Origin: an uncultured Desulfobacterales bacterium
GTDB taxonomy: Bacteria > Desulfobacterota > Desulfobacteria > Desulfobacterales > JAHEIW01
Length of the DNA: 64,000 nucleotides
Reading direction: 5' to 3'
Assembly: GCA_947259495.1 (NCBI GenBank)
Contig: CAMYLV010000008.1
Location: forward strand, 71,939-135,938
Every line of letters starts with the position of its first letter. The stretch's first letter is position 1. Below the pieces are notes generated by a model. The model searched no databases. It was given only the letters and a program-made list of their open reading frames with translations, and was not told the DNA's origin. Below are positions 5,009-61,906 of this stretch, piece after piece. Made by a program: the position numbers and the translations under genes.

Positions 5009-6097
5009 TCAGGGAATCAGGCGCATCCGTTTGGCGTGAAAATCTCTGGCAAGCGCACCATTATCAGCCAGTAGCTCAGCAAGCCTGGCTTTAATGGCGC
5101 TGTTGTCCCGAGCCTGATATGATTCCAGGTTTTCAGCAAAATCCGGTATTCGATAAAGAAAATTACCAATGGCTTCTGAAGTTGGGCGTTGTAAGTTGAC
5201 GCCGTATTTTAAGCGTGCCAGTAAAAACCCGTTGATTTCCTGTTCAAATTGGCCCCGCATGGGCAGTGCCAGGTAAGGCTTGCGCAGGTAAAAGGATTCG
5301 GTCATAAGCGTAAAGCCGGCCGTTGCCATAACCGCTTTGCAGAATGCCAGGTCATCTAAAAAGCCCGTTTTGCTGAACGCTTTAAACGTCAAATGGCCGT
5401 CTGGGCCTTCTTTGCCAGCTCCGTAAACAATAAAGGATTCGCGGGTAAAAGACTTTAATCTTTTTAGAAACGATTCAAACCCGCTGGTCAGATAGACCAG
5501 AATATGGTCCCCGTAAGATGGCTGAAGGGATAAGACCTCTTGCCGCAGAATCGGCGGAAAGAAAAATGTGCGCTTATTTTTGGGCTCGCCATAATAAAAA
5601 GTGGTCACCAGGGACACATCCGGTCGCGGCACCATGGCCCGGATGATGGTCTTCGTCATTTTGCGCTCGGCTTGCAAGCGGACCGGACAGGGATAGGACA
5701 TATACCGAAGGCGGTGCTGGTTGTCGATGGTAATCAGCGGCAGGTCATAATGGTTGGCCAGATAGGCGGTCATGGGCTCAAAATCGGTTATGACACAGTC
5801 GGGCTGAAATTTTTTGAAAATATCTTTCCGCAGCGCTTGAAGTTTTTTGTGCCCTTCGGGTAATCGCTTCAAATTGTCAGTGAATGTTTTTACTTTCGAA
5901 ACCCGGTTATCGAGGCTAGCAATATGCAGCCCTTCGGTCTCGAATACATCGAAATCATCTTTAAGGTTGGCATAGCCGCGATCATAGCTGACGACCTTTA
6001 GCGCGTGCCCCAGCTCCTGGAGATGGGTGAGCATCTCCCGCGCTCTGGAAGAATGGCCTGAACCCTCGCCGGATAATCCGTAAACGATCTTTGCCAT
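5009..6097 (-). CDS. glycosyltransferase (MJ1255-like / GT28-related)
   Basis: N-terminal GLSGEGSGHSSRAREM motif typical of MJ1255-type UDP-glycosyltransferases. 362 aa. Confidence 0.75.
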   Translation of the reverse strand: MAKIVYGLSGEGSGHSSRAREMLTHLQELGHALKVVSYDRGYANLKDDFDVFETEGLHIASLDNRVSKVKTFTDNLKRLPEGHKKLQALRKDIFKKFQPDCVITDFEPMTAYLANHYDLPLITIDNQHRLRYMSYPCPVRLQAERKMTKTIIRAMVPRPDVSLVTTFYYGEPKNKRTFFFPPILRQEVLSLQPSYGDHILVYLTSGFESFLKRLKSFTRESFIVYGAGKEGPDGHLTFKAFSKTGFLDDLAFCKAVMATAGFTLMTESFYLRKPYLALPMRGQFEQEINGFLLARLKYGVNLQRPTSEAIGNFLYRIPDFAENLESYQARDNSAIKARLAELLADNGALARDFHAKRMRLIP

Positions 6098-7196: not shown

Positions 7197-8714
7197 TTGA
7201 CAGACCGGAGGTCATCCTTTAAAATTTTAAGTATGGTCATCCACAAATCGAAAGCATTCTGGATTGCCGGCAGCATTTTTACGCTGACGTTTGCCATCCT
7301 TTTCAGCATTCGCCTGGGAATATTAGAACAAATCTTGTCACGCCCGCGCGACCTTTCCCTGGCAACGATCAATGCAGTCTCGGAGCGTGACACCTGGATG
7401 AATATTTTTCAAAATGAGCGTAAAATCGGCTTTTCCCATACTCGCTTTTATGAAGATACAACCGGCTACCGTCTGATCGAAGCCGCACAAATGCGCATTA
7501 ATACCATGGGGATGATTCAGAGTATCAGCCTGAACACCAAAAGCCGGCTTAACCCTGATTTTACGCTTCAGGAGCTTGATTTTGAAATCAGTTCTGGCCG
7601 GTTTCGATTTTCCGTTCAGGGCGTGGTTGACGGAAACACCTTGTTTGTGACAACCGAAAGCGCCGGTTCGAGCCGCAGGCTAAATATTCCGGTTAAAGAT
7701 AAGCTCTACTTGATGAACAGTATCATGGATGCGGTTGCTGCCACCGATTTGCAGACCGGTGACAGATATGCCTTCAAAATTTTCGATCCGACTTCTATGG
7801 GACAGGTTGATGTAATTGTAGCTGTTATCGGTCCGGAACGCATTGATATCAAGGGGGTCCATCAAGCGGCTACCAAAGTTTCTTTAAATGTAAAAGGTGT
7901 ATCCCAGCTGGCTTGGATTGGAAAAGAAGGCGACATCATCAAGGAAAGAGGGCTTCTGGGCATCAGTTTGATAAAAACCGACCGCAAGGACGCCCTCGAC
8001 GGGCTGGCCATTGAAGCGAGCCAGGATCTTACAAAGATTGCCTCGATCGTCGCCAACATCCAGCTTGAAAACGTTGCAGCCCTTAAGGTTTTAAAGGTAA
8101 AAATCGAAGGGCCGCTAATGAAAAACCTGCAACTCCACGGCGGCAGACAAACCTTTAAAGAACAGGTGCTGACGGTTAAAAAAGAGACGCTGTCCAATCT
8201 GGCCCCGGAGCTTAAAATTGAAAATCTGGCGGCTCTTGAAAAAATATTCTTAAAGCCCGGCCCGTTTATTCAATCCGACGACCAGAGAATCCGAGATCTG
8301 GTCCAGGAAATTTTAAAAGACGATCCTGACGCCGACCCGCTAACCAGAGCGCAAAAATTGATGAATTGGGTGAATACCCATATCGAAAAGCGCCCGGTTC
8401 TATCGCTGCCCGATGCTCTTTCGACACTTGAAAACAAAGTCGGTGATTGCAATGAACACGCCGTTTTAATGGCCGCGCTGGCCCGGGCTGCTGGAATTCC
8501 CACCCGCATCGAAGCCGGCCTGGTATATTTAAAGGGTCGCTTCTACTACCATGCCTGGAATCTCATCTACCTCGGCAAGTGGGTCACCGCCGACTCTCTT
8601 TACGGCCAGCTGCCGGCCGACGTCAGCCATCTGCGGTTTGCAACCGGCTCACCGGAAAAGCAGCTGGATATCATGGGTGTCATCGGCAATATCCGTTTAA
8701 CGGTAATAGAATAG
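7197..8714 (+). CDS. transglutaminase-like cysteine protease-fold membrane-anchored protein
   Basis: C-terminal GDCNEHAVLMAALARAAGIPTR...YHAWN (Cys-His core of the transglutaminase-like superfamily) and an N-terminal TM helix. The track start at 7197 is TTG; ATG at 7233 is an alternative. Confidence 0.8.
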   Translation: MTDRRSSFKILSMVIHKSKAFWIAGSIFTLTFAILFSIRLGILEQILSRPRDLSLATINAVSERDTWMNIFQNERKIGFSHTRFYEDTTGYRLIEAAQMRINTMGMIQSISLNTKSRLNPDFTLQELDFEISSGRFRFSVQGVVDGNTLFVTTESAGSSRRLNIPVKDKLYLMNSIMDAVAATDLQTGDRYAFKIFDPTSMGQVDVIVAVIGPERIDIKGVHQAATKVSLNVKGVSQLAWIGKEGDIIKERGLLGISLIKTDRKDALDGLAIEASQDLTKIASIVANIQLENVAALKVLKVKIEGPLMKNLQLHGGRQTFKEQVLTVKKETLSNLAPELKIENLAALEKIFLKPGPFIQSDDQRIRDLVQEILKDDPDADPLTRAQKLMNWVNTHIEKRPVLSLPDALSTLENKVGDCNEHAVLMAALARAAGIPTRIEAGLVYLKGRFYYHAWNLIYLGKWVTADSLYGQLPADVSHLRFATGSPEKQLDIMGVIGNIRLTVIE

Positions 8715-8811
8715 TCGTCATTGTTTTGATTTGTAAACAAAGAACTTAAGGCGGGTTCTAACAAAATATGGTACAATTACGACTATCTTAAAATGCATTA
8801 AAGGTTCATAA

Positions 8812-8916
8812 GTTGAGCCCGTTGCCCGTTAGCCTGTTTGCCGGTTAAAAAATAAAATCAGGCATTTTTGCGATTTCAACGGGCTCAGCCGGCTCAACTG
8901 GCTAAACCGGCCAAAC
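8812..8916 (+). repeat. flavoured-hairpin element copy A (GCCCGTT / AACGGGC arms, gene-less)
   Basis: Left array GTTGAGCCCGTTGCCCGTTAGCCTGTTTGCCGGTT, core AAAAAATAAAATCAGGCATTTTTGCGATTT, right array CAACGGGCTCAGCCGGCTCAACTGGCTAAACCGGCCAAAC. It ends 7 nt before the ABC ATPase ATG. Confidence 0.75.
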
Positions 8917-8923
8917 TTAAAAA

Positions 8924-9670
8924 ATGATTGAATTAAAAGATCTCACAAAAAAATACGGCGATTTTGAAGCGGTCAATGATCTAAACCTATGCGTTAAAAA
9001 AGGAGAGGTTTTCGGATTTATCGGCCCCAACGGTGCCGGCAAGACCACCACCATTAAGATGATGGGCGGAATTTTGGAACCCACCAAAGGCACGGTATTC
9101 ATTGCCGGCATCAACATGCAGGATGCGCCCGAAAAAGCAAAAAGTAAAATTGGCTTTATTCCGGACCGGCCGTATCTTTACGAAAAACTCAGTGGCATGG
9201 AATTTTTAAAATTCACCGCTGATCTTTACGGGGTATCCGAAGATGCGTTTCAGGCAACCGCTTATGAGATCCTTAAGGATTTTTCACTGGCAGACTGGGG
9301 CGACGAGCTGATTGAATCTTATTCCCATGGTATGAAACAACGGCTGATCATGTCGGCCGCCCTATTGCACGATCCGGAGGTGATTATCGTAGATGAACCC
9401 ATGGTGGGGCTTGATCCGGCTGCGATCATAATGGTCAAAGCACTTTTTCGAAAACTTGCTGGCAAGGGTGTTACCGTCTTTATGTCGACGCATACGCTCA
9501 AAGTTGCCCAGGACACCTGCGATCGGATCGGCGTGATTAACAAAGGCCGCTTAATTGCCATTGGAACAACCGAAGAATTGCAACGGGCGGCCAATGTCAG
9601 CGAAACTGACCTCGAGCAGGTGTTTTTAAACCTGACGAACAATAATGAACGAAGTTCTGACCCTATTTAA
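8924..9670 (+). CDS. ABC transporter ATP-binding protein (ABC-2 type)
   Basis: Walker A GPNGAGKTT, signature YSHGMKQRL, Walker B IIIVDEP. Confidence 0.9.
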   Translation: MIELKDLTKKYGDFEAVNDLNLCVKKGEVFGFIGPNGAGKTTTIKMMGGILEPTKGTVFIAGINMQDAPEKAKSKIGFIPDRPYLYEKLSGMEFLKFTADLYGVSEDAFQATAYEILKDFSLADWGDELIESYSHGMKQRLIMSAALLHDPEVIIVDEPMVGLDPAAIIMVKALFRKLAGKGVTVFMSTHTLKVAQDTCDRIGVINKGRLIAIGTTEELQRAANVSETDLEQVFLNLTNNNERSSDPI

Positions 9671-11333
9671 ACCCCGCATCTGGCCGCTCAAGAACCGCGG
9701 TTTGTCAAAGGCTAATGGCAAAGGCGGCGCGCGCCTCATTTTGCTCGGCACATTCGGCCTGCTTTTCTGGTGCGGTATATTCGCCGTCTCCTGGCGGGTT
9801 TTGATTTACTTTAAGGGCATTGAGGATATCGGAGACATTCTGGGCTATAAATTATTGTCCATGATGCTGGTGGTGTCTTTTGCCCTGCTTCTATTCAGCA
9901 ACATCCTCACATCCCTTTCCAAACTCTATCTGTCCCGCGACCTTTTGCTGGTTCATTCGCTGCCGGTTTCCAGTTATAAGATTTTTATCACGCGCTGGGT
10001 CGACAGCACTATTGACAGTGCCTGGATGGTCATCATTTATACCATGCCCGTGCTCATCTCCTATGGCATCGTCTATAAAACCGGCATTTTTTACTATATC
10101 AACACCCTGATTGCGATGTTGTGCCTGGCAGCGATCGCTTCGGCCATCAGCACTCTACTGGTGATGACTGCGGTCATCTTTATCCCCGCCAGCCGAATGA
10201 AAAGTGTCTTTATTCTCATGGGGATTCTTTCTTTTGTGGTCATCTATCTGGCCATCCGCCTTTCACAGCCGGAATTGCTTGTCGACCCGGAAATTTTTGA
10301 CACCGTTATGGTCTATATTACCTCGCTGCAAACGCCGTCATCACCGTTTTTGCCGAGCAGCTGGATATATGACAGTATTCGATCCGCTCTTGCCGGTGCG
10401 ACCAGCAACAGTTTGTTTTTCACGGCGCTGTCTTTGAGTTTTGCCGGGATGATTGCATTTGTCCTGATCTTACTTGCCGATGCGATTTACTTTAAAGGCT
10501 TCTCCAAAACACAGAATGCTCCGGCCCGTTTGTTTAAAAGCAACGTCATCGGCGATCGCCTTTTTAACTTTCTGCCGGGCCCGGTAAGGTCCTTTACGGT
10601 CAAAGAAATAAAGACCTTCCTGCGCGACCAGACCCAGTGGACGCAGATCTTTCTGATTGCCGCCCTGGTGGTGATTTACGTTTATAATTTCAAGGTCCTG
10701 CCCCTTGAAAAATCGCCGATCAAAACCGTGTACCTGCAGAATCTATTCTCATTTCTTAACATGGGACTGGCGTTGTTCGTTTTGACAGCCATAACCGCCC
10801 GATTTGCCTACCCGGCGGTCAGTCTGGAAAGAGAGGCCTTCTGGCTGGTTAAAACCTCCCCGCTATCCATCCGTACGTTTTTATGGATTAAATTTTTCAT
10901 CTATTATCTTCCGCTACTCATCTTGACCGAGGTTCTGATTGCGGCAACCAACATCCTGCTGCAGGTCACGCCGTTTATGATGATCCTTTCAACCCTTACG
11001 GTTTTTTTTGTTGTCCCCGGCATCGTGGCACTGGGCATCGGCCTGGGAGCGGCCTATCCGGATTTTAAAGCCGAAAATCCGACCCAGACCATAACCAGTT
11101 TCGGCGGACTGGTCTTTATGATTGCCTGCGCCGGATACATCGGCCTGGTGGTCCTCATCGAGGCGGGTCCGGTGTACAATCTCTTTATGGCCGGCATCCG
11201 CAATAAATTTATCAGCCTGTCAGCCTGGATATGGATTATCGGCTCCTTTGGCCTGGTATTGGTTCTCAGCCTGCTGGCCATTTTTCTGCCGATGCGCTTT
11301 GGCCGGAGACGCCTGTCCCAATTGCTCATCTGA
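9645..11333 (+). CDS. polytopic membrane protein, putative ABC exporter permease partner
   Basis: 562 aa with many hydrophobic helices. It overlaps the ATPase gene end by 26 nt. Confidence 0.7.
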   Translation: MNEVLTLFKPRIWPLKNRGLSKANGKGGARLILLGTFGLLFWCGIFAVSWRVLIYFKGIEDIGDILGYKLLSMMLVVSFALLLFSNILTSLSKLYLSRDLLLVHSLPVSSYKIFITRWVDSTIDSAWMVIIYTMPVLISYGIVYKTGIFYYINTLIAMLCLAAIASAISTLLVMTAVIFIPASRMKSVFILMGILSFVVIYLAIRLSQPELLVDPEIFDTVMVYITSLQTPSSPFLPSSWIYDSIRSALAGATSNSLFFTALSLSFAGMIAFVLILLADAIYFKGFSKTQNAPARLFKSNVIGDRLFNFLPGPVRSFTVKEIKTFLRDQTQWTQIFLIAALVVIYVYNFKVLPLEKSPIKTVYLQNLFSFLNMGLALFVLTAITARFAYPAVSLEREAFWLVKTSPLSIRTFLWIKFFIYYLPLLILTEVLIAATNILLQVTPFMMILSTLTVFFVVPGIVALGIGLGAAYPDFKAENPTQTITSFGGLVFMIACAGYIGLVVLIEAGPVYNLFMAGIRNKFISLSAWIWIIGSFGLVLVLSLLAIFLPMRFGRRRLSQLLI

Positions 11334-11374
11334 CCCCCTGCAAGCCTGCAAAGTCCCATCTTCAAATTTTCATC

Positions 11375-11403
11375 TTGACAGCCATAATGTATACGTTTAT
11401 ATT
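11375..11403 (+). promoter_or_regulatory. candidate sigma70 promoter for the 4HB-remnant/lexA transcription unit
   Basis: TTGACA (11375-11380), a 17-nt spacer, then TATATT (11398-11403). The spacer contains the near-palindrome AATGTATACGTT. Confidence 0.5.
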
Positions 11404-11422
11404 TACATTAATATTTACATTA
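11399..11422 (+). promoter_or_regulatory. exact tandem 12-mer ATATTTACATTA x2 overlapping the -10/+1 region (possible operator)
   Basis: Read directly: ATATTTACATTAATATTTACATTA immediately at and after the -10 hexamer. Confidence 0.35.
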
Positions 11423-11428
11423 TTCTCT

Positions 11429-11708
11429 GGTTTACCGTTCAAAGGTTCGGGGTTCAAAGATTAAAGACAAATCTGAACCGTTGCTTCGAAGATCCGAGGA
11501 GAAAAGGATGAAAATCGAACAATTTGACGACATTGAAGCCTGGCAATTGACCCGGAAGCTCACTCGCAAGGTCTATGAATTGACAAAAAAGCCCAAATTT
11601 GATCGCGACTTCGGCTTGAAGAGGCAAATTCAGGAGGCCGCCGGTTCATCCATGCACAATATTGCGGTAACCCTGAACGGTGAACCCTGAACCCTTGAAC
11701 CTGAAACC
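11429..11708 (+). repeat. flavoured-hairpin element copy B (GGTTCA / TGAACC arms) carrying an internally deleted four-helix-bundle gene
   Basis: Left array GGTTTACCGTTCAAAGGTTCGGGGTTCAAAG. Right array GTAACCCTGAACGGTGAACCCTGAACCCTTGAACCTGAAACC, whose first 27 nt are identical to the right arm of copy C. Confidence 0.8.
11508..11690 (+). pseudogene. truncated four-helix-bundle protein gene (23S rRNA IVS protein family), N-terminal 53 codons only
   Basis: MKIEQFDDIEAWQLTRKLTRKVYELTKKPKFDRDFGLKRQIQEAAGSSMHNIA, then the frame reads straight into the right repeat arm. By eye there are 15 mismatches over 160 nt versus 13339-13498. The roughly 210 bp present in copy C between ATTGCGG and TAACCC are absent. 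Confidence 0.8.
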
Positions 11709-11724
11709 GACGAAAGGAGGTTTC

Positions 11725-12357
11725 ATGAAAGTCCCGCTGACAGCCAAACAGCAGCGTGTTCTGGATTATCTTCAGCGCGAAATCGCCAAAACCGGTCTGT
11801 GCCCCAGCCTGCGCCAGGCTGCAGCGAATCTGGGGGTCAGCCATGCCGCTATCGCCCAGATCCTTCGTGTGCTGGAAGAAAAAGGCTATGTTAAGCGCGA
11901 GGGGCGTTACAGCCGCAACGTTTATTTGTTAAATCGCACGCGCCAGGCAGCGGCTTTGCAGCGCTGGCGCGAAATCCCGATTATCGGTCGTGTCACGGCC
12001 GGTCTACCGATGTACGCCCAGACGGAGTGGGACGGCAGCATCGTGCTGGATGCCGCCGTTTATCGCAGTCAAAACATCTTCGCCCTGCGCGTCAAGGGCG
12101 ATTCGATGAGAGATGCCGGCATCCTCAACGGCGACCTGGCGATCTGCGAACCGCGTCAGTACGCCCAAAATGGGGAAATCGTCGTGGTTCTCATTAACAG
12201 TGAAGAGGCCACTGTCAAACGCTTCTTTTTACGTGACGACCACATCGAGCTGCGTCCGGAAAATACCGACTACGCCCCCATGCGTTACGGCTTCGGCGAA
12301 GTGCTGGTTCAGGGCAAGATCATCGGCATCCACCGCGGCCCGGAAGAAATAAATTGA
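11725..12357 (+). CDS. lexA: LexA repressor (S24 peptidase)
   Basis: wHTH N-terminus (LTAKQQRVLDYLQREIAKTGLCPSLRQAA), catalytic GDSM and VKRF Lys motif. AAAGGAGG SD 5 nt upstream of the ATG at 11725. The track ORF start at 11680 lies inside the repeat arm. Confidence 0.9.
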   Translation: MKVPLTAKQQRVLDYLQREIAKTGLCPSLRQAAANLGVSHAAIAQILRVLEEKGYVKREGRYSRNVYLLNRTRQAAALQRWREIPIIGRVTAGLPMYAQTEWDGSIVLDAAVYRSQNIFALRVKGDSMRDAGILNGDLAICEPRQYAQNGEIVVVLINSEEATVKRFFLRDDHIELRPENTDYAPMRYGFGEVLVQGKIIGIHRGPEEIN

Positions 12358-12468
12358 GCACGCTGCGCATTTGAGGAGCGGTCCTCGGAACCTTTAGGAA
12401 CGCTCCTTCAGCCGGGCATGATGGCATTGCGCAAGCGTTAGCAGCATCCCTTGGCGTAGAAAACGAAA

Positions 12469-13293
12469 ATGCAAACCGAGCAAACAAAAAGCCCCTGCCG
12501 CCTGTGGGTCGGCACCAGCGGTTATTCGTATACAGAGTGGGTCAACGCCGGGTTTTACCCGCCGGGCACCCGATCGGGCCAGATGCTGCCGCTTTACGCC
12601 CGAACCTTTCCGATCACCGAACTGAACTTCACCTGGTATCAGATGCCGAAAGCCGCTGCCATCGAACGCATGCGCCGGCAGGCACCGCCCGGTTTTCGTT
12701 TTGCCGCCAAACTGACCCGCACCTTAACCCATGAGGTGGACCCCGACCAATGGCGGGGGCAGGCCTCTCAATACCGCGACGGCATGGCACCGCTGGTCCA
12801 GGCCCGGCAGCTGACAGCTGTTTTGCTGCAGTTTCCGCCGAGCTTTTCCCGGGCGCCGCAAAATCGCCGCTACCTGGCCGCCCTTCTGGACGAACTGGCC
12901 GGATTGCCCCTGGCGGTGGAATTTCGCCATGCCTCATGGGCCGCGGACCGGGTTTTTGCCGAACTGGAGCGCCGCCGCACCACCTTGGTGGCCGTGGATG
13001 AACCGGCTTTACCGGGCCTGTTTCCGCGACTCGATTTGGTCACCAATCCGGAGCTTTTCTATATTCGGTTTCACGGCCGCAACGCCAGAGGCTGGCGCTC
13101 GGGCAATATGCAAATGCAGTTCGACTACGACTACCGTGATGAAGAGCTGCGGGAATGGGCTGATAAAATCATCACACCGATGACCCGACAGGCCGGCAGC
13201 GGGACAATTTTTTTCAACAACCACGTCCGCGGCCAGGCACCCAAAAATGCCCGGCGTTTGATCAGCCAGTTAATTGAAGGAGGTCTTCTCTAG
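12469..13293 (+). CDS. DUF72 (YecE-like) family protein
   Basis: WVGTSGYSYTEWVNAGFYPPG N-terminus, FRFAAKL, AVLLQFPPSF and AVEFRHASW are typical DUF72 blocks. Confidence 0.85.
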   Translation: MQTEQTKSPCRLWVGTSGYSYTEWVNAGFYPPGTRSGQMLPLYARTFPITELNFTWYQMPKAAAIERMRRQAPPGFRFAAKLTRTLTHEVDPDQWRGQASQYRDGMAPLVQARQLTAVLLQFPPSFSRAPQNRRYLAALLDELAGLPLAVEFRHASWAADRVFAELERRRTTLVAVDEPALPGLFPRLDLVTNPELFYIRFHGRNARGWRSGNMQMQFDYDYRDEELREWADKIITPMTRQAGSGTIFFNNHVRGQAPKNARRLISQLIEGGLL

Positions 13294-13745
13294 GTTCAGA
13301 GGTTCCGGGTTCTGGGTTCAAAGGTTCTGAGGAAAAAAATGAAAATCGAACGATTTGAAGACATTGAGGCCTGGCAATTGGCCCGGGAGTTAACACGCAA
13401 GGTCTATGAATTGACAAAAAAGCCCCGGTTTGCGGGCGACTTCGGCTTGAAGAGACAAATTCAGGAGGCCGCCGGTTCATCCATGCACAATATTGCGGAA
13501 GGATTCGATTCGGAGACAAACCCGGAATTTATTCGTTTTCTTCGATATGCCAAGCGGTCTTGCACTGAAGTCCAGAGTGAGCTTTACGTGGCACTGGATC
13601 AGCAATACATAACAACTCAAGAGTTTCAGAATGTGTACGACCATGCCGGGCGTACCCGTGCTGCCATTCGAGGTTTCATTAAGTACTTGCTAGCTTATGA
13701 GCAAGGTAACCCTGAACGGTGAACCCTGAACCTATGAACCCTTAT
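13293..13745 (+). repeat. flavoured-hairpin element copy C (GGTTCA / TGAACC arms) with an intact four-helix-bundle gene; the reference full-length copy
   Basis: Left array GGTTCAGAGGTTCCGGGTTCTGGGTTCAAAGGTTCTGAGG (13293-13332). Right array GTAACCCTGAACGGTGAACCCTGAACCTATGAACCC (13706 onward). Together they bracket ORF 13339-13722. Confidence 0.85.
13339..13722 (+). CDS. four-helix-bundle protein (23S rRNA intervening-sequence protein family, PF05635/TIGR02436-like; Avd-like fold)
   Basis: 127 aa with FEDIEAWQLARELTRKVYELT...GLKRQIQEAAGSSMHNIAEGF...EFIRFLRYAKRSCTEVQSELYVALDQQYIT, the hallmark pattern of this family. Confidence 0.85.
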   Translation: MKIERFEDIEAWQLARELTRKVYELTKKPRFAGDFGLKRQIQEAAGSSMHNIAEGFDSETNPEFIRFLRYAKRSCTEVQSELYVALDQQYITTQEFQNVYDHAGRTRAAIRGFIKYLLAYEQGNPER

Positions 13746-14915
13746 AACCGTTCAATTATCCATTTAAACGTGGCTGATTTTGCCGTGGCGGTGGAAAGGG
13801 CGGTGGATCACCGGCTGCACGAACGTCCGGTGATCATCGCACCCGAAGGCGCCGTACGCGCCGCCGTTTATGACATGAGCAACGAGGCCTATATAACCGG
13901 CATCCGCAAGGGCATGGCCCTGCAGCGAGCCGTTCGCCTGTGTCAAGATGTCCGCATCCTGCCGCCCCACCCCCACCGCTACGAACAGGCCATGCGCGAT
14001 GTGCTCAAGCGCGCCCTGCCGTATTCACCCCTGATCGAAACCGGTGAAGACGACGGCCACCTGTTTATGGATGCCACCGGCACCGGCCGCCTTTTCGGGC
14101 CGCCCAGGGATGTGGCCTGGCGGTTGCGCCGGCAGATCAAAACCGACCTGGGCCTGGACCCGATCTGGTCGGTGGCACCCAACAAATTGGTGGCCAAAGT
14201 GGCCACCCGCCTGGTGAAACCCGATGGAGCGTACATCGTCTCGGCCGGCGAAGAAAGATCGCTGCTGGCCCCGCTGCCTGTCCGCCTGGTTCCAGGCATC
14301 GAGCGCGATGACCTGCTTCGGTTGCGGGAATTCAATTTGACGCATGCATTTCAGGTCGCGGCCCTGAGCCTGGAGCAGTTGGCGGTCCCTTTTGCCACCC
14401 GTGCCCGGCTGCTTTACGAGGCGGTGCGCGGCATCGATCCGTCTCCGGTTTTGCCGGTCGGGCAGAAACCGCCGCAGGTGATCGCCGATCACGAATTCGG
14501 CATCGACACCAACGATGTGCACACCCTGGAGAGCGTTCTCTACGGGCTGGTGGAGCAGGTTGGCAGCCGGCTGCGCCGACGCCGGCGAGTTGCCCGCCGC
14601 ATTGCCATTGTGCTCGACTATTCCGACGGCATGCGCCGCGCCCGCCAGGTGGCCGCCCGGCCGGCCACGGCCAATGACCTCACCCTCTTTGAACTGGCCC
14701 GGCGCGCACTGCAACTGGCCTGGATGCGGCGGGTGCGTATCCGCCACCTGCGCCTGATCGGCGCCCGGCTGGTCTTTCCGCCGGCCCAGTTAGAACTGTT
14801 TGCCGCCGATCAGAAAGCCGATGAAAAGCGATCCAGCCTGATCGGCGCCATCGACACCGTGCGCCACCGCTTCGGCCATGAGGCCTTGCGGTTCGGCCGC
14901 ACTTTAGCGGCCTAA
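13719..14915 (+). CDS. imuB: ImuB-like Y-family DNA polymerase homologue (catalytically inactive type)
   Basis: IIHLNVADFAVAVE aligns with the DinB motif IIHVDMDCFFAAVE, but both Asp residues are replaced. The SLDE position reads DDGH. Both candidate ATGs (13719, 13734) lie inside the right arm of element C, and the gene sits upstream of dnaE2. Confidence 0.8.
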   Translation: MNPEPMNPYNRSIIHLNVADFAVAVERAVDHRLHERPVIIAPEGAVRAAVYDMSNEAYITGIRKGMALQRAVRLCQDVRILPPHPHRYEQAMRDVLKRALPYSPLIETGEDDGHLFMDATGTGRLFGPPRDVAWRLRRQIKTDLGLDPIWSVAPNKLVAKVATRLVKPDGAYIVSAGEERSLLAPLPVRLVPGIERDDLLRLREFNLTHAFQVAALSLEQLAVPFATRARLLYEAVRGIDPSPVLPVGQKPPQVIADHEFGIDTNDVHTLESVLYGLVEQVGSRLRRRRRVARRIAIVLDYSDGMRRARQVAARPATANDLTLFELARRALQLAWMRRVRIRHLRLIGARLVFPPAQLELFAADQKADEKRSSLIGAIDTVRHRFGHEALRFGRTLAA

Positions 14916-14916
14916 C

Positions 14917-15212
14917 TGCCGGTTTGCCCGTTGCCGGTTTAGCCCGTTGGCCGGTTGATAATTGAACGAATAACCATCAGAACAAACTGTTGAACAAACG
15001 AATTTATTCGATTTTTAACATATTCGCGACGCTCTTGTTCTGAGGTACAAAATTGCCTGTATATTGCTTTGGACCAGAAGGACATCTCCCCAGAAGCGTT
15101 TCAAAGTACTTATGACCACTGTGCAAGGATCAGGAAAATAATTGATGGCCTAATCCGTTACTTGAAAAACCATCAACCCGGCTAACGGGCCAACGGGCTC
15201 AACCGGCTCAAC
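14917..15212 (+). repeat. flavoured-hairpin element copy D (GCCSGTT / AACSGGC arms) with a 5'-truncated four-helix-bundle gene fragment
   Basis: Left array CTGCCGGTTTGCCCGTTGCCGGTTTAGCCCGTTGGCCGGTTG starts 2 nt after the imuB stop. Right array CAACCCGGCTAACGGGCCAACGGGCTCAACCGGCTCAAC ends 6 nt before the dnaE2 ATG. Confidence 0.8.
14997..15185 (+). pseudogene. four-helix-bundle protein gene fragment (C-terminal half only)
   Basis: Hand translation NEFIRFLTYSRRSCSEVQNCLYIALDQKDISPEAFQSTYDHCARIRKIIDGLIRYLKNHQPG* aligns with residues ~62-124 of the 13339-13722 protein (roughly 60% identical by eye). An in-frame TGA lies just upstream and there is no start codon. Confidence 0.75.
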
Positions 15213-15218
15213 TTTGTT

Positions 15219-18200
15219 ATGATCCCATTAACCGTCCGATCCAACTACTCTTTCATGTGGGGCACAGCTTCGGTCAAACAGGTCTGCCGGGCAGCCCGAC
15301 GTCTGGGCTATACGCACCTGGCGCTGACCGACACCGACAACCTGTGCGGCCTGTGGCCCTTTTTAACCAGCTGTCGGCGCGAAGGACTGACACCCATTGT
15401 GGGGGCGGAGATCACCGACCCGCAGCGCAAGCAGCGGGCCGTCTGCCTAGTGGCCAATGATTCCGGCTACCGCAACCTCTGCCGCCTGTTGACCCGCCGC
15501 CACATGGACGATGATTTTAGTTTGGCGGCCGCTGTAAGCGCCCATGCAAATGGATTGGTGGTCCTTACCCAGAGCGCGGGCCTGCTCAGCGCCTGGCATG
15601 CTGACGGCGTTGCAGTTGCCGGCGCCCTGCCGCGTCGTCCTTTGCCCGCCACCCACCGACTGCGCCACACGGCCCGCCGCCTGGGCGTGTCGGTGGTAGC
15701 CACGCCAGGCAGTTTCTTTTTGCGTCCCGCAGACATGGCGGTGCATCGCATTTTGCGCGCCATCGCGCACAACACATCCCTGTCACGCCTGGCAGCCGAC
15801 GAAGTTGCCCCGGTAGATGCATGGCTGGCAGGCCCTCAAGAATATGAACGCCGCTTTGCCATCTGCCCGGAGGCAATCAGCGTCACTTACAAAATAGCCG
15901 AACGTCTGGATTTTAGCGGCCCGCAATTTGGCATTGTCATGCCGCCGCTGCTCGGTCAAAACGGCAGCAACCCGGCCGAGCGCCTGCGCGAGCAAGCTTA
16001 TGAAGGTGCGCGGCAGCGCTACGGCGATGAGCTTTCCGAGGCCGTGGTGGAGCGGCTGGAACACGAATTGCGCAGCATCACAGACATGGGATTTGCCGCA
16101 TATTTTTTAATCGTGCGCGGCATCATCCAGCGCAGCCCGCGCACCTGCGGCCGCGGCTCGGGCGCCGCTTCGCTGGTGGCTTACTGCCTGGGCATTACCA
16201 ATGTCTGTCCCCTGAAGCACAATTTGTATTTTGAGCGGTTCTTAAACCCGGGCCGCCAAGATCCGCCCGACATCGATGTGGATTTTGCCTGGGATGAACG
16301 CGATGCGGTCCTGGATTCGGTCCTGACCCAGTATCCGGGTCACGCCGCTATGGTGTCCAGCCACGTGCTGTTTCAACCGCGCATGGCGGTGCGCGAAGTG
16401 GCCAAGGTCTTCGGGCTGACCGATGCCGAAATCGGCCGGGTGTCCAAGCGGCTGCCCCAATTCTGGCGCGTGAAAGAATCCGACCCTCGATTTTTGGACG
16501 AACTACAGCAGCGTCCCGAATCCAAAGCGCTGGCGTTTCCCCCGCCCTGGCCCGACATTTTGCAGTTTGCCCAGCGCCTGATCGGCACCCCGCGCTATAT
16601 GTCGGTGCACCCCGGCGGCGTGGTGATCACGCCGCGGCCTATTGAAGAATACGTCCCTGTCGAGCGCGCCCCCAAAGGCGTGCCGATTATCCAGTGGGAA
16701 AAGGATGCCACCGAAGATGCCGGGCTGGTCAAAATTGATTTGCTGGGCAACCGCAGCCTGGGGGTCATTCGTGACGCCCTGGTCAACCTGCGCGACAACG
16801 GCACCGCCTTCGACGAGCTGCGCTGGGAACCCGAAGACGACTTTGCCACCCAGGAGGCTCTGGCCCAGGGTCGCACCATGGGCTGTTTTTATATCGAAAG
16901 CCCGGCCATGCGCCTGCTGCAGCAAAAGTCCAAAGTGGGCGATTTCGAACACCTGGTCATTCACAGCAGCATTATCCGCCCGGCTGCCAACGAATTTATC
17001 CAGGAATACATCCGCCGGCTGCACGGCGGCCGCTGGGACCCGATTCATCCTTTTTTGGCCGAAGTGCTCGCTGAAACCTTCGGCATCATGGTTTATCAGG
17101 AAGATGTCTCCCGCGCGGCAGTGGTTATCGCTGGCTTTTCGCATGCCGAAGCCGATACGCTGCGCAAAGTGCTGACCAAAAAGGATCGCGCGCATCAGCT
17201 GCGGGATTTTGAGCAACGCTTTTACACCGGCGCACGGCAGCACGGCGTATCCGCTGACAAAACCGCTGAAATCTGGGATATGATGATGAGCTTTAACGGC
17301 TATTCCTTCTGCAAACCCCACAGTGCTTCTTATGCCCGGGTATCCTTTCAGGCCGCCTATCTCAAGGTCCATTATCCGGCCGAATTTATGGCTGCGGTGA
17401 TCAGCAACCAGGGCGGCTTTTACGGCACCTTTGCCTACGTGTCCGAGGCCCGGCGCATGGGTCTGAAGGTGCTGCCGCCCAATGTCAGCTTAAGTGAGGT
17501 TCACTGGACCGGCGGGGCCGATACCATCCGGGTGGGGCTGCTGTCCGTCAAGGGCCTGGGCATCGACACCCGGGCGCGCATCGTTGCGCAGCGTCGCCGC
17601 CGGTCCTACGGTAGTCTGCGGGATTTTTTGGACCGCGTGCGCCCCGCGGAAGACGAGGCCCGCTCATTGATCAACTGCGGCGCCCTGGATGCCTTCAACT
17701 CCGGCGGCAACCGCGCAGCGCTGCGGTGGGAACTGGCCGGCTGGTTGAAATCAAAACGGCCGAAAGTGCCCAACCCCGCCCTGTTTGATGGTGCCAACCC
17801 TGGCGCCGATTGCCCGCCGCCGGCACTGCCCGCCGAAGATGAACGCGAACGACGGCGGCGTGAGTTTACGGTGCTGGACTTTCTGTGCGATCGTCACCCC
17901 ATGGAGCTGTTTGCCGGACAGTTGCAAAAACGACGCACCGTTAAAGCCGTGGACCTGCCGTGCTTTGTCGGCCGGCGGGTCACTCTGGCCGGCTGGCTGA
18001 TTACCGGCAAGGTGGTTTCCACCAAAAAGGGCGATCCCATGGAGTTTTTAACCTTTGAAGATGAAACCGGTATTGTAGAGACTACCTTTTTCCCGCAAGC
18101 CTACCGCCGTTTTTGCCACATCATCGATCGCCAGCGGCCCTATCTGCTTACCGGCAGGGTCGAAGCGGACTGGGGCGCGCTGACCCTTACAGTCGAAAAG

Positions 18201-18224
18201 GCCGAACAGTTGAAGTCCAGCTAA
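15219..18224 (+). CDS. dnaE2: error-prone DNA polymerase III alpha homologue DnaE2 (ImuC)
   Basis: 1001 aa with an N-terminal PHP domain (LTVRSNYSFMWGTAS), a pol III alpha core (PDIDVDF, GYSFCKPHSASYA) and a C-terminal OB fold. It follows imuB. Confidence 0.9.
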   Translation: MIPLTVRSNYSFMWGTASVKQVCRAARRLGYTHLALTDTDNLCGLWPFLTSCRREGLTPIVGAEITDPQRKQRAVCLVANDSGYRNLCRLLTRRHMDDDFSLAAAVSAHANGLVVLTQSAGLLSAWHADGVAVAGALPRRPLPATHRLRHTARRLGVSVVATPGSFFLRPADMAVHRILRAIAHNTSLSRLAADEVAPVDAWLAGPQEYERRFAICPEAISVTYKIAERLDFSGPQFGIVMPPLLGQNGSNPAERLREQAYEGARQRYGDELSEAVVERLEHELRSITDMGFAAYFLIVRGIIQRSPRTCGRGSGAASLVAYCLGITNVCPLKHNLYFERFLNPGRQDPPDIDVDFAWDERDAVLDSVLTQYPGHAAMVSSHVLFQPRMAVREVAKVFGLTDAEIGRVSKRLPQFWRVKESDPRFLDELQQRPESKALAFPPPWPDILQFAQRLIGTPRYMSVHPGGVVITPRPIEEYVPVERAPKGVPIIQWEKDATEDAGLVKIDLLGNRSLGVIRDALVNLRDNGTAFDELRWEPEDDFATQEALAQGRTMGCFYIESPAMRLLQQKSKVGDFEHLVIHSSIIRPAANEFIQEYIRRLHGGRWDPIHPFLAEVLAETFGIMVYQEDVSRAAVVIAGFSHAEADTLRKVLTKKDRAHQLRDFEQRFYTGARQHGVSADKTAEIWDMMMSFNGYSFCKPHSASYARVSFQAAYLKVHYPAEFMAAVISNQGGFYGTFAYVSEARRMGLKVLPPNVSLSEVHWTGGADTIRVGLLSVKGLGIDTRARIVAQRRRRSYGSLRDFLDRVRPAEDEARSLINCGALDAFNSGGNRAALRWELAGWLKSKRPKVPNPALFDGANPGADCPPPALPAEDERERRRREFTVLDFLCDRHPMELFAGQLQKRRTVKAVDLPCFVGRRVTLAGWLITGKVVSTKKGDPMEFLTFEDETGIVETTFFPQAYRRFCHIIDRQRPYLLTGRVEADWGALTLTVEKAEQLKSS

Positions 18225-37125: not shown

Positions 37126-37167
37126 CCTGATTCGGAATTGAATACAGGCTTCAGGTGATATTTACCT

Positions 37168-37302
37168 GGTTCAAAGGTTCAGCGTTCAAAGGTTGTGAGG
37201 TTAGATTACAGACGACAGCTGTCAGAGATAAAATGAAACCGGACCGAATCACTGACGCTGAGCCCCAGAACTCCTGAACCTTGAACCTCTTAACCCTTAA
37301 CC
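37168..37302 (+). repeat. flavoured-hairpin element copy E (GGTTCA / TGAACC arms, gene-less)
   Basis: Left GGTTCAAAGGTTCAGCGTTCAAAGGTTGTGAGGTT. Core ...CAGAGATAAAATGAAACCGGACCG.... Right GAACTCCTGAACCTTGAACCTCTTAACCCTTAACC. Confidence 0.8.
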
Positions 37303-37325
37303 ATCGTCATTTACAGGAAACCGTT

Positions 37326-57790: not shown

Positions 57791-57898
57791 CCGGTTTATC
57801 CCGTGCTCACAGGTTAGCCCGTTTGCCGGTCGACGATAAGAGATCAGATAATTTTTTTTAACGGGCTAACGGGCTCAGCGGGTTCAACGGGCCAACCG
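57791..57898 (-). repeat. flavoured-hairpin element copy I (GCCCGTT / AACGGGC arms, gene-less, inverted orientation)
   Basis: Plus strand: CCGGTTTATCCCGTGCTCACAGGTTAGCCCGTTTGCCGGTC ... TAACGGGCTAACGGGCTCAGCGGGTTCAACGGGCCAACCG. The reverse complement gives array, then AAAAAAAATTATC, then inverted array. Confidence 0.75.
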
Positions 57899-61816: not shown

Positions 61817-61840
61817 CGACTATAGAAGAATCTTTAATCT

Positions 61841-61906
61841 CGAAAACACGAAAAACAAAAGAAAAAAATTGTATTTTTAAATTTTCGTGATTTCGTGGTT
61901 TTGTGG
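61841..61906 (+). repeat. flavoured-hairpin element copy L (CACGAAA / TTTCGTG arms, gene-less)
   Basis: CGAAAACACGAAAAACAAAAG, then AAAAAAATTGTATTTTTAAA, then TTTTCGTGATTTCGTGGTTTTGTGG. Confidence 0.7.

Follow-up and report, generated by a model that had tools for sequence, protein, structure and literature searches.

A 64,000-nucleotide stretch of DNA from an uncultured Desulfobacterales bacterium (contig CAMYLV010000008.1; hereafter the window, numbered from its first letter) carries three copies, B, C and D, of genes of the PF05635 family, each lying between two inverted arrays of short repeat units that we refer to as arms. Here we describe copy D, which lies between imuB and dnaE2. We found that copy D is not a gene but a start-less, 5′-truncated pseudogene remnant that retains the C-terminal half of its coding sequence. 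We put the probability at about two in three that copy D is what remains, without function, of a small selfish gene cassette, left by the decay of an old insertion of its type (D-type) in which gene and arms form one unit.

The D element fills the imuB–dnaE2 spacer exactly, its left arm beginning 2 nt past the imuB stop codon and its right arm stopping 6 nt short of the dnaE2 ATG. The left arm (14918–14956, + strand, as are all parts of the element) consists of five GCC(C/G)GTT units with 0–2 nt between them (GCCGGTT 14918–24, GCCCGTT 14926–32, GCCGGTT 14933–39, GCCCGTT 14942–48 and GCCGGTT 14950–56). It is followed by a degenerate, frame-shifted leftover of the middle of the gene (14957–14996), which translations and a DNA alignment with three related loci (L002, L003 and L004; related loci are cited by L number) assign to the region of ...IMNNICEGFDS..., and then by 62 codons and a stop codon (14997–15185) left from the C-terminal half of a D-type PF05635 gene. 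In frame 3, positions 14997–15182 translate as NEFIRFLTYSRRSCSEVQNCLYIALDQKDISPEAFQSTYDHCARIRKIIDGLIRYLKNHQPG, and the stop is TAA at 15183–15185. The right arm (15173–15212), complementary to the left, is built of AAC(C/G)GGC units that read, in order, AACCCGGC, AACGGGC, AACGGGC, AACCGGC and AAC, and it begins within the last codons of the remnant and runs across its stop.

The remnant scored above the curated thresholds of both family profiles, matching positions 57–105 of 106 in PF05635 (E 9.4e-10; 39.1 bits, gathering score 33.8) and TIGR02436 at 43.5 bits (cut-off 24). A protein-family check therefore bore out the original prediction, made from the letters of the window alone, that D belongs to the gene family of copy C. 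The feature it placed at 14917–15212 likewise matched in coordinates, arms and 62-residue translation, and its position was confirmed by Pfam IMS and IMS_C domains upstream and PHP and DNA_pol3_alpha domains downstream. The identity to copy C, put at roughly 60%, fell on the right region and measured lower, at 54% over 61 aa (copy C residues 63–123; tblastn E 1.6e-19). A search of the 64-kb window with copy C (tblastn) returned B, C and D and no further PF05635 fragment.

We consider copy D a remnant because only the C-terminal half of PF05635 is left, a start codon is lacking and an in-frame stop stands upstream. We looked for an ATG or GTG start in the frame of the remnant and found none; the first in-frame TTG leaves 38 codons, and an in-frame TGA (14991–14993) lies directly 5′ of the remnant. 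No ribosome-binding site or Shine-Dalgarno motif was found for it, and no + strand open reading frame (ORF) of at least 40 aa is listed at the element. Copy D thus does not hold the complete four-helix domain with a start codon that a functional gene would have. Intact orthologues of copy D, however, probably exist elsewhere.

To place copy D among its relatives, a metagenome scan with the ImuB of the window yielded 80 loci (64–98% identity), in which imuB always lay upstream of dnaE2 where the contig reached it. In L003, from an NCBI metagenome-assembled genome, the order is lexA-DUF3795-DUF72-imuB-[PF05635]-dnaE2, and the gene at the D site is an intact one of 141 aa with its own ATG, between GCCCGTT and AACGGGC arrays. 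The D remnant is 63% identical to this copy over the stretch aligned by tblastn (ImuB of L003 and L004 is 57–61% identical), and L004 resembles L003 minus two AACGGGCT units. In L002 (P0001) the gene, 92% identical to D, has lost only about its first 30 codons and has a shorter left arm. Altogether, a full-length D-type gene occupies the D site in L037, L045, L062 and L063, as well as in L085 from a genome scan; a 5′-truncated one is found in L033, L086, L002, L043 and the window with its near-identical relative L010; and the site is empty, with a spacer of 0–57 nt, in L067, L075/76, L084, L039, L040, L061, L077/79/82, L071 and L073. The database proteins closest to the 62-aa fragment were 57–92% identical, many of them truncated, and several end in the tails ...PTG, ...QTG or AQRAKP, which are translated AACSGGC arrays.

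Divergence of the coding sequence followed that of the host locus: the proportion of non-synonymous differences (pN) in D's 62 codons rises with ImuB divergence, from 0.035 (86%) through ~0.11 (73–77%) to 0.22 (61%). Between the window and L002, the ratio of non-synonymous to synonymous change (dN/dS) was 0.13 (5 non-synonymous, 9 synonymous changes), so that the D gene was under purifying selection for most of the time since their split. This low ratio and the 62 open codons could also be taken to mean that the remnant still yields a short protein or peptide with a function. We find that idea hardly credible, since the remnant has neither ATG or GTG nor Shine-Dalgarno motif behind its directly adjacent TGA, would make half of a four-helix bundle, and differs from the near-identical L010 copy at three places, two of which change an amino acid; a low dN/dS is also expected if the truncation is recent relative to the L002 split. 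We favor the remnant of a once functional cassette. The D-type insertion is probably orthologous across the relatives, judging from these comparisons, and the most economical reading would be a single old insertion that was long functional and recently lost its 5′ half in the lineage of the window.

The imuB–dnaE2 junction is a hot spot of fast turnover. Relatives with ImuB at least 84% identical carry five arm types in this spacer: GCCSGTT, with the D remnant; CACCGCAGAG / CTCTGCGGTG, with a 127-aa GxxExxY / PDDEXK_3 gene (PF13366 E 1e-42; TIGR04256); CTGGYN / NRCCAG, with a nested ATCGAG-type hairpin and a repetitive extragenic palindrome (REP)-associated tyrosine transposase (RAYT) in L034/L041; and CGAAAN / NTTTCG and a GAGCGCTKCGCTTGAGGA-type, both as hairpins without cargo. 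In the window and L005 (ImuB 97%), the two sequences are identical to the imuB stop and homologous again from the dnaE2 ATG; between those points the window holds the 306-nt D remnant and L005 a 727-nt GxxExxY cassette. This cassette, which carries a PD-(D/E)XK (PF13366) gene between CACCGCAGAGRCGCAGAG arms and has nested inner hairpins (L005 5180–5906), also replaces D in L006–L008, L016, L038, L049, L050 and L055, and L051/52 and L069 appear to hold short cargo-less versions of it. It represents a second cargo family of like overall architecture, whose protein gave only a weak Cas4-like match in PADLOC (E 0.0014). We rejected a defence function for the PF05635 cargo, as neither copy C nor the intact D-type protein had a PADLOC match. 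At the neighbouring DUF72–imuB spacer, PF05635 genes of copy C's type (C-type), whether intact, frame-shifted or truncated, were present in at least 14 loci, as orthologues of copy C, and absent elsewhere.

The arms themselves vary in length and complexity. Their heptamers occur in varying number, with 5 units in the window and 16–20 in L086/L063, and arms have grown to 11–20+ units in L063 (3305–4000), L086 (2977–3432), L102 and L122; together with the two-unit difference between L003 and L004, this indicates that array length is unstable. Many D-type cassettes contain a second, inner hairpin of the cassette's flavour (that is, type of repeat unit) between gene and outer right arm, giving a Y-shaped structure (L002 1225–1316, L033, L037, L045, L062 and L063); copy D of the window has no inner hairpin.

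We then asked how well the arms of D pair. The best ungapped inverted repeat joins 14933–14956 to 15184–15207 (24 nt, 92% complementary) and ranks first in the 64-kb window, where just 6 inverted pairs reach 20 nt with arms no more than 700 nt apart; extended to ~40 nt, these arms make a long stem round the reading frame, as do the terminal inverted repeats of intervening sequences (IVSs) in rRNA. Tandem Repeats Finder gave the left arm a period of 15, which is two units, with 92% matches. The inner pairing proposed earlier, of CCCGTTGGCCGGTTG with CAACCCGGCTAACGGG, was correct, with one G-T(U) position and one bulge. As RNA, the arm–arm duplex reached −59.5 kcal/mol, compared with −32.2 ± 5.0 for 500 dinucleotide shuffles of the right arm (z −5.4), and the fold of the whole 321-nt element reached −97.8 versus −76.4 ± 4.9 (z −4.4; 0/100 shuffles), the arms forming the outer stem. 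In a cross-flavour control, the D left arm with the C right arm, and the reverse, paired no better than shuffles. The original assignment of GCC(C/G)GTT/AAC(C/G)GGC to a separate repeat type was supported. The D left arm paired equally well with the right arms of two cargo-less GCCSGTT hairpins of the window (8813–8920 and 57795–57898, the latter at −58.9 kcal/mol).

Rfam gave no family within 8500–15600 at E up to 1, and a consensus scan for promoter and terminator signals inside D gave nothing above shuffles. The sole + strand candidate for an intrinsic terminator between imuB and dnaE2, a 5-bp stem in the right arm with a weak tail, was rejected; terminator candidates numbered 7 versus 5.8 ± 2.9 in shuffles, with no excess.

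Copies C and D share a gene family and differ in arm flavour, from which the original prediction had concluded that flavour diversifies independently of the cargo gene or faster than it. When one genome per species was scanned with an alignment of C- and D-type proteins, 80 more loci came to light, whose labels include Desulfobacterota, Verrucomicrobiota, Chloroflexota, Nitrospirota, Planctomycetota, Omnitrophota, Acidobacteriota and Cloacimonadota. Complementary periodic arrays bracket nearly all of them; in local alignments of upstream flanks to the reverse complement of downstream flanks, true pairs had a median score of 36, compared with 16 when partners were mismatched and 15 when flanks were shuffled. 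Across 70 copies, arm 5-mer similarity was correlated with protein identity (Mantel Spearman r 0.64, reached by 0/2000 permutations), the 5-mer cosine being 0.04–0.06 below 60% protein identity, 0.24 at 60–70%, 0.45 at 70–80%, 0.68 at 80–90% and 0.79 above 90%. Copies at the D site (13 related loci) are all D-type with GCCSGTT-type arms, and copies at the C site are C-type, with a GGTTCA arm signal at C-site spacers. Each protein group has its flavour: GGTTCA(N) in proteins at least about 71% identical to copy C, GTTCTT(G) in the clade neighbouring C-type, TAGTTNGA or TAGTCNGG in Chloroflexota, GGTCTGTCT in Nitrospirota, and GCCSGTT, shading into GCGCGTT and GCCAGTT, in the D clade.

That arm flavour changes independently of the cargo, with arms swapped or re-invented on a faster clock, therefore seems improbable to us. 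In its favour, the C and D proteins are 54% identical with arms that have no common recognisable unit, only 70% of pairs at 70–80% protein identity still share arm 5-mers, and a single spacer holds many arm types among close relatives. Yet arm similarity climbs monotonically with protein identity, flavour is shared by 99–100% of pairs above 80% identity, and it changes stepwise, through GGTTCA, GTTCAC and GTTCTT, along the protein clustering; D-site genes uniformly have GCCSGTT arms and C-site genes the GGTTCA signal, and where arm types differ at the D site they carry different cargo (GxxExxY, RAYT or none), not the same gene. Independence of arms and cargo was thus not upheld; flavour tracks gene phylogeny in this sample, though not perfectly, and such tracking is what the original prediction had named as its own refutation. 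The notion of a faster clock stood in one respect, since arms become unrecognisable at about 60–65% protein identity, sooner than the proteins do, and failed in another. Between the window D and L037, L045, L062, L063 and L003 the proportion of synonymous differences (pS) is 0.73–0.95, and all of these retain GCC(C/G)GTT units; with the unit kept despite saturated synonymous sites, the arms look constrained, not fast-drifting. Finally, C-type genes 82–89% identical to copy C were found with GGTTCA arms in bins labelled Cloacimonadota, Neomarinimicrobiota and Anammoxibacter, which indicates that gene and arms move together. The preferred explanation, that gene and arms are inherited and moved as one unit, accounts for arm flavour following the gene tree.

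The same species-level collection, whose labels cover more than ten phyla, revealed a regular anatomy. Arm period was 7 nt (30 copies), 8 nt (27) or 9 nt (7) in all 64 arms analysed. The commonest arm trinucleotide is GTT, at ~0.9 per unit, and 5′ arms are 66% G+T. Units per arm peak at five (22/72 left arms, 21/72 right arms), with (5,5) the commonest pair, and shuffled flanks never rose above three GTT/AAC units. Among cassettes with two identifiable neighbours, 51/64 are co-oriented with both and 2/64 antisense to both. Between the upstream stop codon and the left arm the median gap is 4 nt, and between the right arm and the downstream gene's first in-frame ATG or GTG it is 6 nt. A Shine-Dalgarno-like motif precedes the ORF in 41/74, as it does in copies B and C.

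From this anatomy, an intact cassette would begin with a 5′ arm of about five 7–8-nt units built round a GTT core. A short leader that supplies the cassette's own ribosome-binding site would come next, then a 120–140-aa PF05635 four-helix-bundle gene (S23p/Avd-like family) and finally a 3′ arm reverse-complementary to the first. The D-type cassette most likely already lay between imuB and dnaE2 in the ancestor of this Desulfobacterales group; it would then have stayed intact in some relatives, progressively lost its 5′ half in others, and elsewhere been replaced by unrelated hairpin cassettes. Because cassettes are co-oriented with their neighbours and without a promoter of their own, they would be transcribed within the host operon by read-through. 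The two arms could pair in the mRNA and loop the cargo out, so that the base of the stem would set the upstream stop beside the downstream start and coupled or reinitiating translation of the neighbours would survive; bringing stop and start together would make the insertion nearly neutral for the operon. Such a stem might be the mRNA counterpart of the RNase III excision of S23p-bearing IVSs from 23S rRNA. In copy D only the function of the hairpin, if any, would remain, and since relatives manage without any spacer the hairpin is probably neutral. Arm units that are conserved past synonymous saturation and specific to a subfamily are probably the target of sequence-specific recognition, for which the protein encoded by the cassette itself is the most plausible candidate.

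Alternatively, the heptamer arrays could belong to the host or to a regulator and act on translation or mRNA stability, with PF05635 a passenger or a binding regulator, in which case copy D would be a regulatory hairpin retained before dnaE2, and not junk. Several observations fit this view: cargo-less hairpins of both flavours stand directly upstream of unrelated genes of the window, right arms stop close to the downstream start (the noted median of 6 nt), a Shine-Dalgarno motif is missing before dnaE2 in all alleles compared, arms outlast cargo at the D site, and their unit sequence is kept beyond synonymous saturation. Moreover, TAACTGA repeats, mostly in 2–4 copies (up to 6), likewise lie a few nt upstream of start codons (PMC4679880). 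We nevertheless rate it as unlikely. Relatives with 0–57-nt spacers or other arm types indicate that dnaE2 needs no particular array, the tie between flavour and cargo subfamily across phyla is unexpected of a host regulator, and an array always has a complementary partner array.

Several points weigh against a selfish cassette moved and inherited as one unit. Repeated recombinational import of D alleles may stand in place of vertical descent at the D site. Neither a transposase or integrase nor a target-site duplication came to light, and inspection by eye showed no direct repeats at the edges of B, C and D; spread within a population would need no more than homologous recombination through flanking genes or arms of the same flavour. 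The correlation of flavour and cargo would follow from simple linkage, without recognition of arms by the protein, and the cross-phylum cases come from metagenome bins that are possibly contaminated. Tight abutment to stop and start codons is partly expected of any insert in a very short spacer. Folding support is uneven: of the four cargo-less hairpins, two score weakly (arm-duplex z −1.3 at 8813; fold z −1.65 at 61840), and for the intact copy C the fold of the whole element is no significant improvement on shuffles (z −1.5), for which reason arm-only duplex tests were used in place of the whole-element fold. Finally, we infer co-transcription, stem formation and any RNase III cleavage from sequence.

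The genes flanking copy D belong to a mutagenesis operon (window 11680–18224) with the order lexA-(DUF3795)-DUF72-imuB-dnaE2, the DUF3795 gene being an extra one in the lexA–DUF72 spacer of L003; no imuA-like gene was seen in either the window or L003, and the position of DUF72 is conserved in the related loci that reach it. Upstream of D lies the imuB-like gene (13734–14915, +), with a Y-family polymerase fold (Pfam IMS 1.7e-29, IMS_C 2.9e-15) and stop TAA at 14913–14915; downstream lies a dnaE2-type paralogue of DNA polymerase III alpha, of 1001 aa (15219–18224, +; Pfam PHP, DNA_pol3_alpha, DNA_pol3_finger, HHH_6 and OB). Copies B, C and D all lie 3′ of one promoter-like site, TTGACA-17-TATATT (11375–11403), within this SOS operon. 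The site is sigma-70-like, with 11/12 consensus matches, and was the only strong one in the scan. Just after it, an exact 12-nt direct repeat, ATATTTACATTA, occurs twice at 11399–11422 and may be the operator of the operon.

This setting suggests another role, in which PF05635 would be an Avd-like accessory of ImuB/DnaE2 in SOS mutagenesis and D a redundant copy, lost after C took over. All three PF05635 copies of the window share the lexA-DUF72-imuB-dnaE2 transcription unit behind the promoter-like site, the family is homologous to Avd, the partner of a mutagenic reverse transcriptase (PMC10053308), and the window has an intact C with a dead D where L003 has an intact D and no C. In the species-level collection, however, only 3/80 PF05635 loci adjoin imuB/dnaE2, all of them close relatives of the same order; many relatives have no PF05635 match at the C or D site (L009, L011, L013, L016, L018 and L022), and these spacers also take GxxExxY genes, RAYT/REP and empty hairpins. 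We therefore rejected a general link between PF05635 and the mutagenesis operon, and regard an accessory role as highly improbable.

Two further copies accompany D in the window. Copy C (13293–13749, +; PF05635 1.4e-28; arm duplex z −2.8) is an intact cassette of a sister subfamily, with a GGTTCN arm (13293–13332), a Shine-Dalgarno GAGGA and ATG, an ORF of 127 aa (13339–13722) and a TGAACC arm (13705–13749) that overlaps the start of imuB. Copy B (11429–11715, +; PF05635 positions 2–47; arm duplex z −3.5), in the lexA leader, is a C-type cassette with an internal deletion: between a GGTTC-type arm (11429–11462) and a TGAACC arm (11666–11715) it has a 60-aa ORF with the N-terminal half only (11508–11690). 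It is 80% identical to copy C residues 1–59, and the two copies share a 167-nt direct repeat, 90% identical. The deletion in B fuses codon 53 (...HNIA) straight to the right arm, and a good Shine-Dalgarno motif is kept. The mechanical ORFs of lexA (11680–11724) and imuB (13719–13733) begin at GTG codons inside the TGAACC arms, which gives the N-termini MNPEPLNLKP... and MNPEPMNP..., respectively; the real starts are probably ATG 11725 for lexA (after GGAGG) and ATG 13734 for imuB. A 28-nt inverted repeat, 75% complementary (12383–12410 / 13275–13302), brackets the DUF72 gene, and its left half resembles a stray GAACC-type arm in the lexA–DUF72 spacer.

Four cargo-less hairpins are scattered over the rest of the window. 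A GCCSGTT/AACSGGC hairpin with a loop of ~31 nt (8813–8920, +; fold z −3.2) ends 3 nt before the ATG of an ABC-transporter gene, and a second GCCSGTT hairpin (57795–57898, +; fold z −2.7) stands upstream of a pyruvate:ferredoxin oxidoreductase gene (Pfam). A GGTTCA hairpin with five units per arm (37166–37305, +; fold z −2.8) lies upstream of a MoeA/PBP-like gene. The small, weakly folding hairpin at 61840–61905 is of a further flavour, CACGAAAA / TTTTCGTG, and its unit recurs at the imuB–dnaE2 spacers of L073 and L074.

How a PF05635 protein might recognise its arms is suggested by the number five. As TRAP wraps 11 triplet repeats, PF05635 could be a pentameric ring that binds its own heptamer array, one subunit per unit and five units per arm; this is a tentative idea, made attractive by the mode of five units and the pentameric crystal forms. 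The only solved relatives found by sequence, 2GSC and 2RLD, were both deposited with five chains, and 2GSC (XCC0516) is described as a toroidal homopentamer. It is conceivable, at a similarly speculative level and again from sequence, that such a self-recognising cassette colonises operon stop-start junctions as well as rRNA helices in many phyla. Orphan arrays (STRR, for short tandemly repeated repetitive sequences, and TAACTGA) and ORF-less hairpins might then possibly be its non-autonomous or decayed derivatives.

These results define how the uncharacterised PF05635/S23p family is laid out genetically outside rRNA. A gene that is co-oriented with its neighbours and lacks a promoter lies between two inverted arrays of 7–9-nt units, and the whole sits where one operon gene stops and the next starts, in >10 labelled phyla. 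They tie together three loose ends, namely the S23p-bearing 23S IVSs, whose origin has been open since 1993, intergenic heptamer repeats and the Avd-like pentamer fold, and they raise two testable questions, namely whether each protein binds the unit of its own arms and whether the stem hides the insertion from the operon. At the imuB–dnaE2 junction, gain, decay and replacement can be followed as a natural time series that takes in no fewer than five arm types and three families of cargo and could serve to measure the dynamics of such elements. For annotation, gene callers stretch lexA and imuB into the arms, with spurious 'MNPEP...' N-termini, and call decayed fragments as genes. In the literature covered, no account was found of PF05635 genes outside rRNA being flanked by inverted heptamer arms, or of such arms co-varying with the protein, which is not proof of novelty.

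Among known systems, mobile elements with short hairpin repeats offer a partial likeness. REPIN/RAYT systems (REPINs being REP doublets that form hairpins) and miniature inverted-repeat transposable elements (MITEs) are also short intergenic hairpin repeats with and without a protein gene, in which cargo-less copies outnumber gene-bearing ones. They differ in that the cargo here is not a Y1 transposase, and copies share the repeat unit only, with no target-site duplication seen. We rejected an identity with REPIN/RAYT or MITE elements, as loops within one flavour are unrelated and the cargo is not a transposase; the genuine RAYT at the imuB–dnaE2 site of L034/L041 (element 5180–5978; NF047646, 103 bits, cut-off 80) has its own, different REPs, GTAGGG...CCCTAC. 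An analogy with integron cassettes, suggested by the combination of a co-oriented ORF lacking a promoter and a hairpin site, was likewise rejected, since arms stand on both sides and the identified neighbours include no integrase.

The Avd protein of diversity-generating retroelements (DGRs; Avd structure PDB 4DWL) and XCC0516 (PDB 2GSC) have a homologous four-helix-bundle fold, and homology of the PF05635 family to DGR Avd has been reported (PMC10053308). In contrast to a DGR, the identified flanking genes of B, C and D (lexA, DUF72, imuB and dnaE2) include no reverse transcriptase; template and variable repeats were not searched for. Intergenic arrays provide a second partial likeness, as 7-nt, AAC-containing tandem units that end a few nt before a start codon and are patchily distributed. 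Such heptamers, the STRR sequences, were reportedly described in cyanobacteria by Mazel and colleagues in 1990. TAACTGA arrays occur in Beggiatoaceae, Cyanobacteria and Bacteroidetes, and are proposed to bind a post-transcriptional regulator (PMC4679880). They were described as one-sided direct repeats, with neither a complementary partner array nor a link to PF05635, whereas every array of the cassettes described here has an inverted partner, usually with a gene between.

The closest known system is the ORF-bearing 23S rRNA IVS with S23p, known from Leptospira, Coxiella burnetii, Xanthomonas and Brucella. The Coxiella IVS has a 28-bp terminal stem, with the S23p ORF in its loop, and a varying number of tandem heptamers; RNase III cuts it, and its ORF is decaying, including a 176-bp deletion (PMC4990558); 23S IVSs lie in helices 9, 25 or 45, and their sporadic distribution is put down to horizontal transfer (PMC4990558). 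Like these, the cassettes described here have PF05635 in the loop, terminal inverted repeats and heptamers, decay by point changes and large deletions, and a GC content below that of the host. IVSs, however, lie in 23S rRNA and are excised by RNase III, while D lies between protein-coding genes of an operon, outside any 23S or 16S rRNA gene, with no Rfam match, and an Rfam gathering search found rRNA near 0/20 related genome loci tested. The Coxiella ORF is probably untranslated, whereas the intact cassettes here have good ribosome-binding sites, and a link between arm flavour and protein subfamily is not described for IVSs in the literature covered. Together, these comparisons place copy D in a class of IVS-like hairpin cassettes in operon spacers, with an unexpectedly regular architecture and a testable hypothesis of pairing between protein and repeat.

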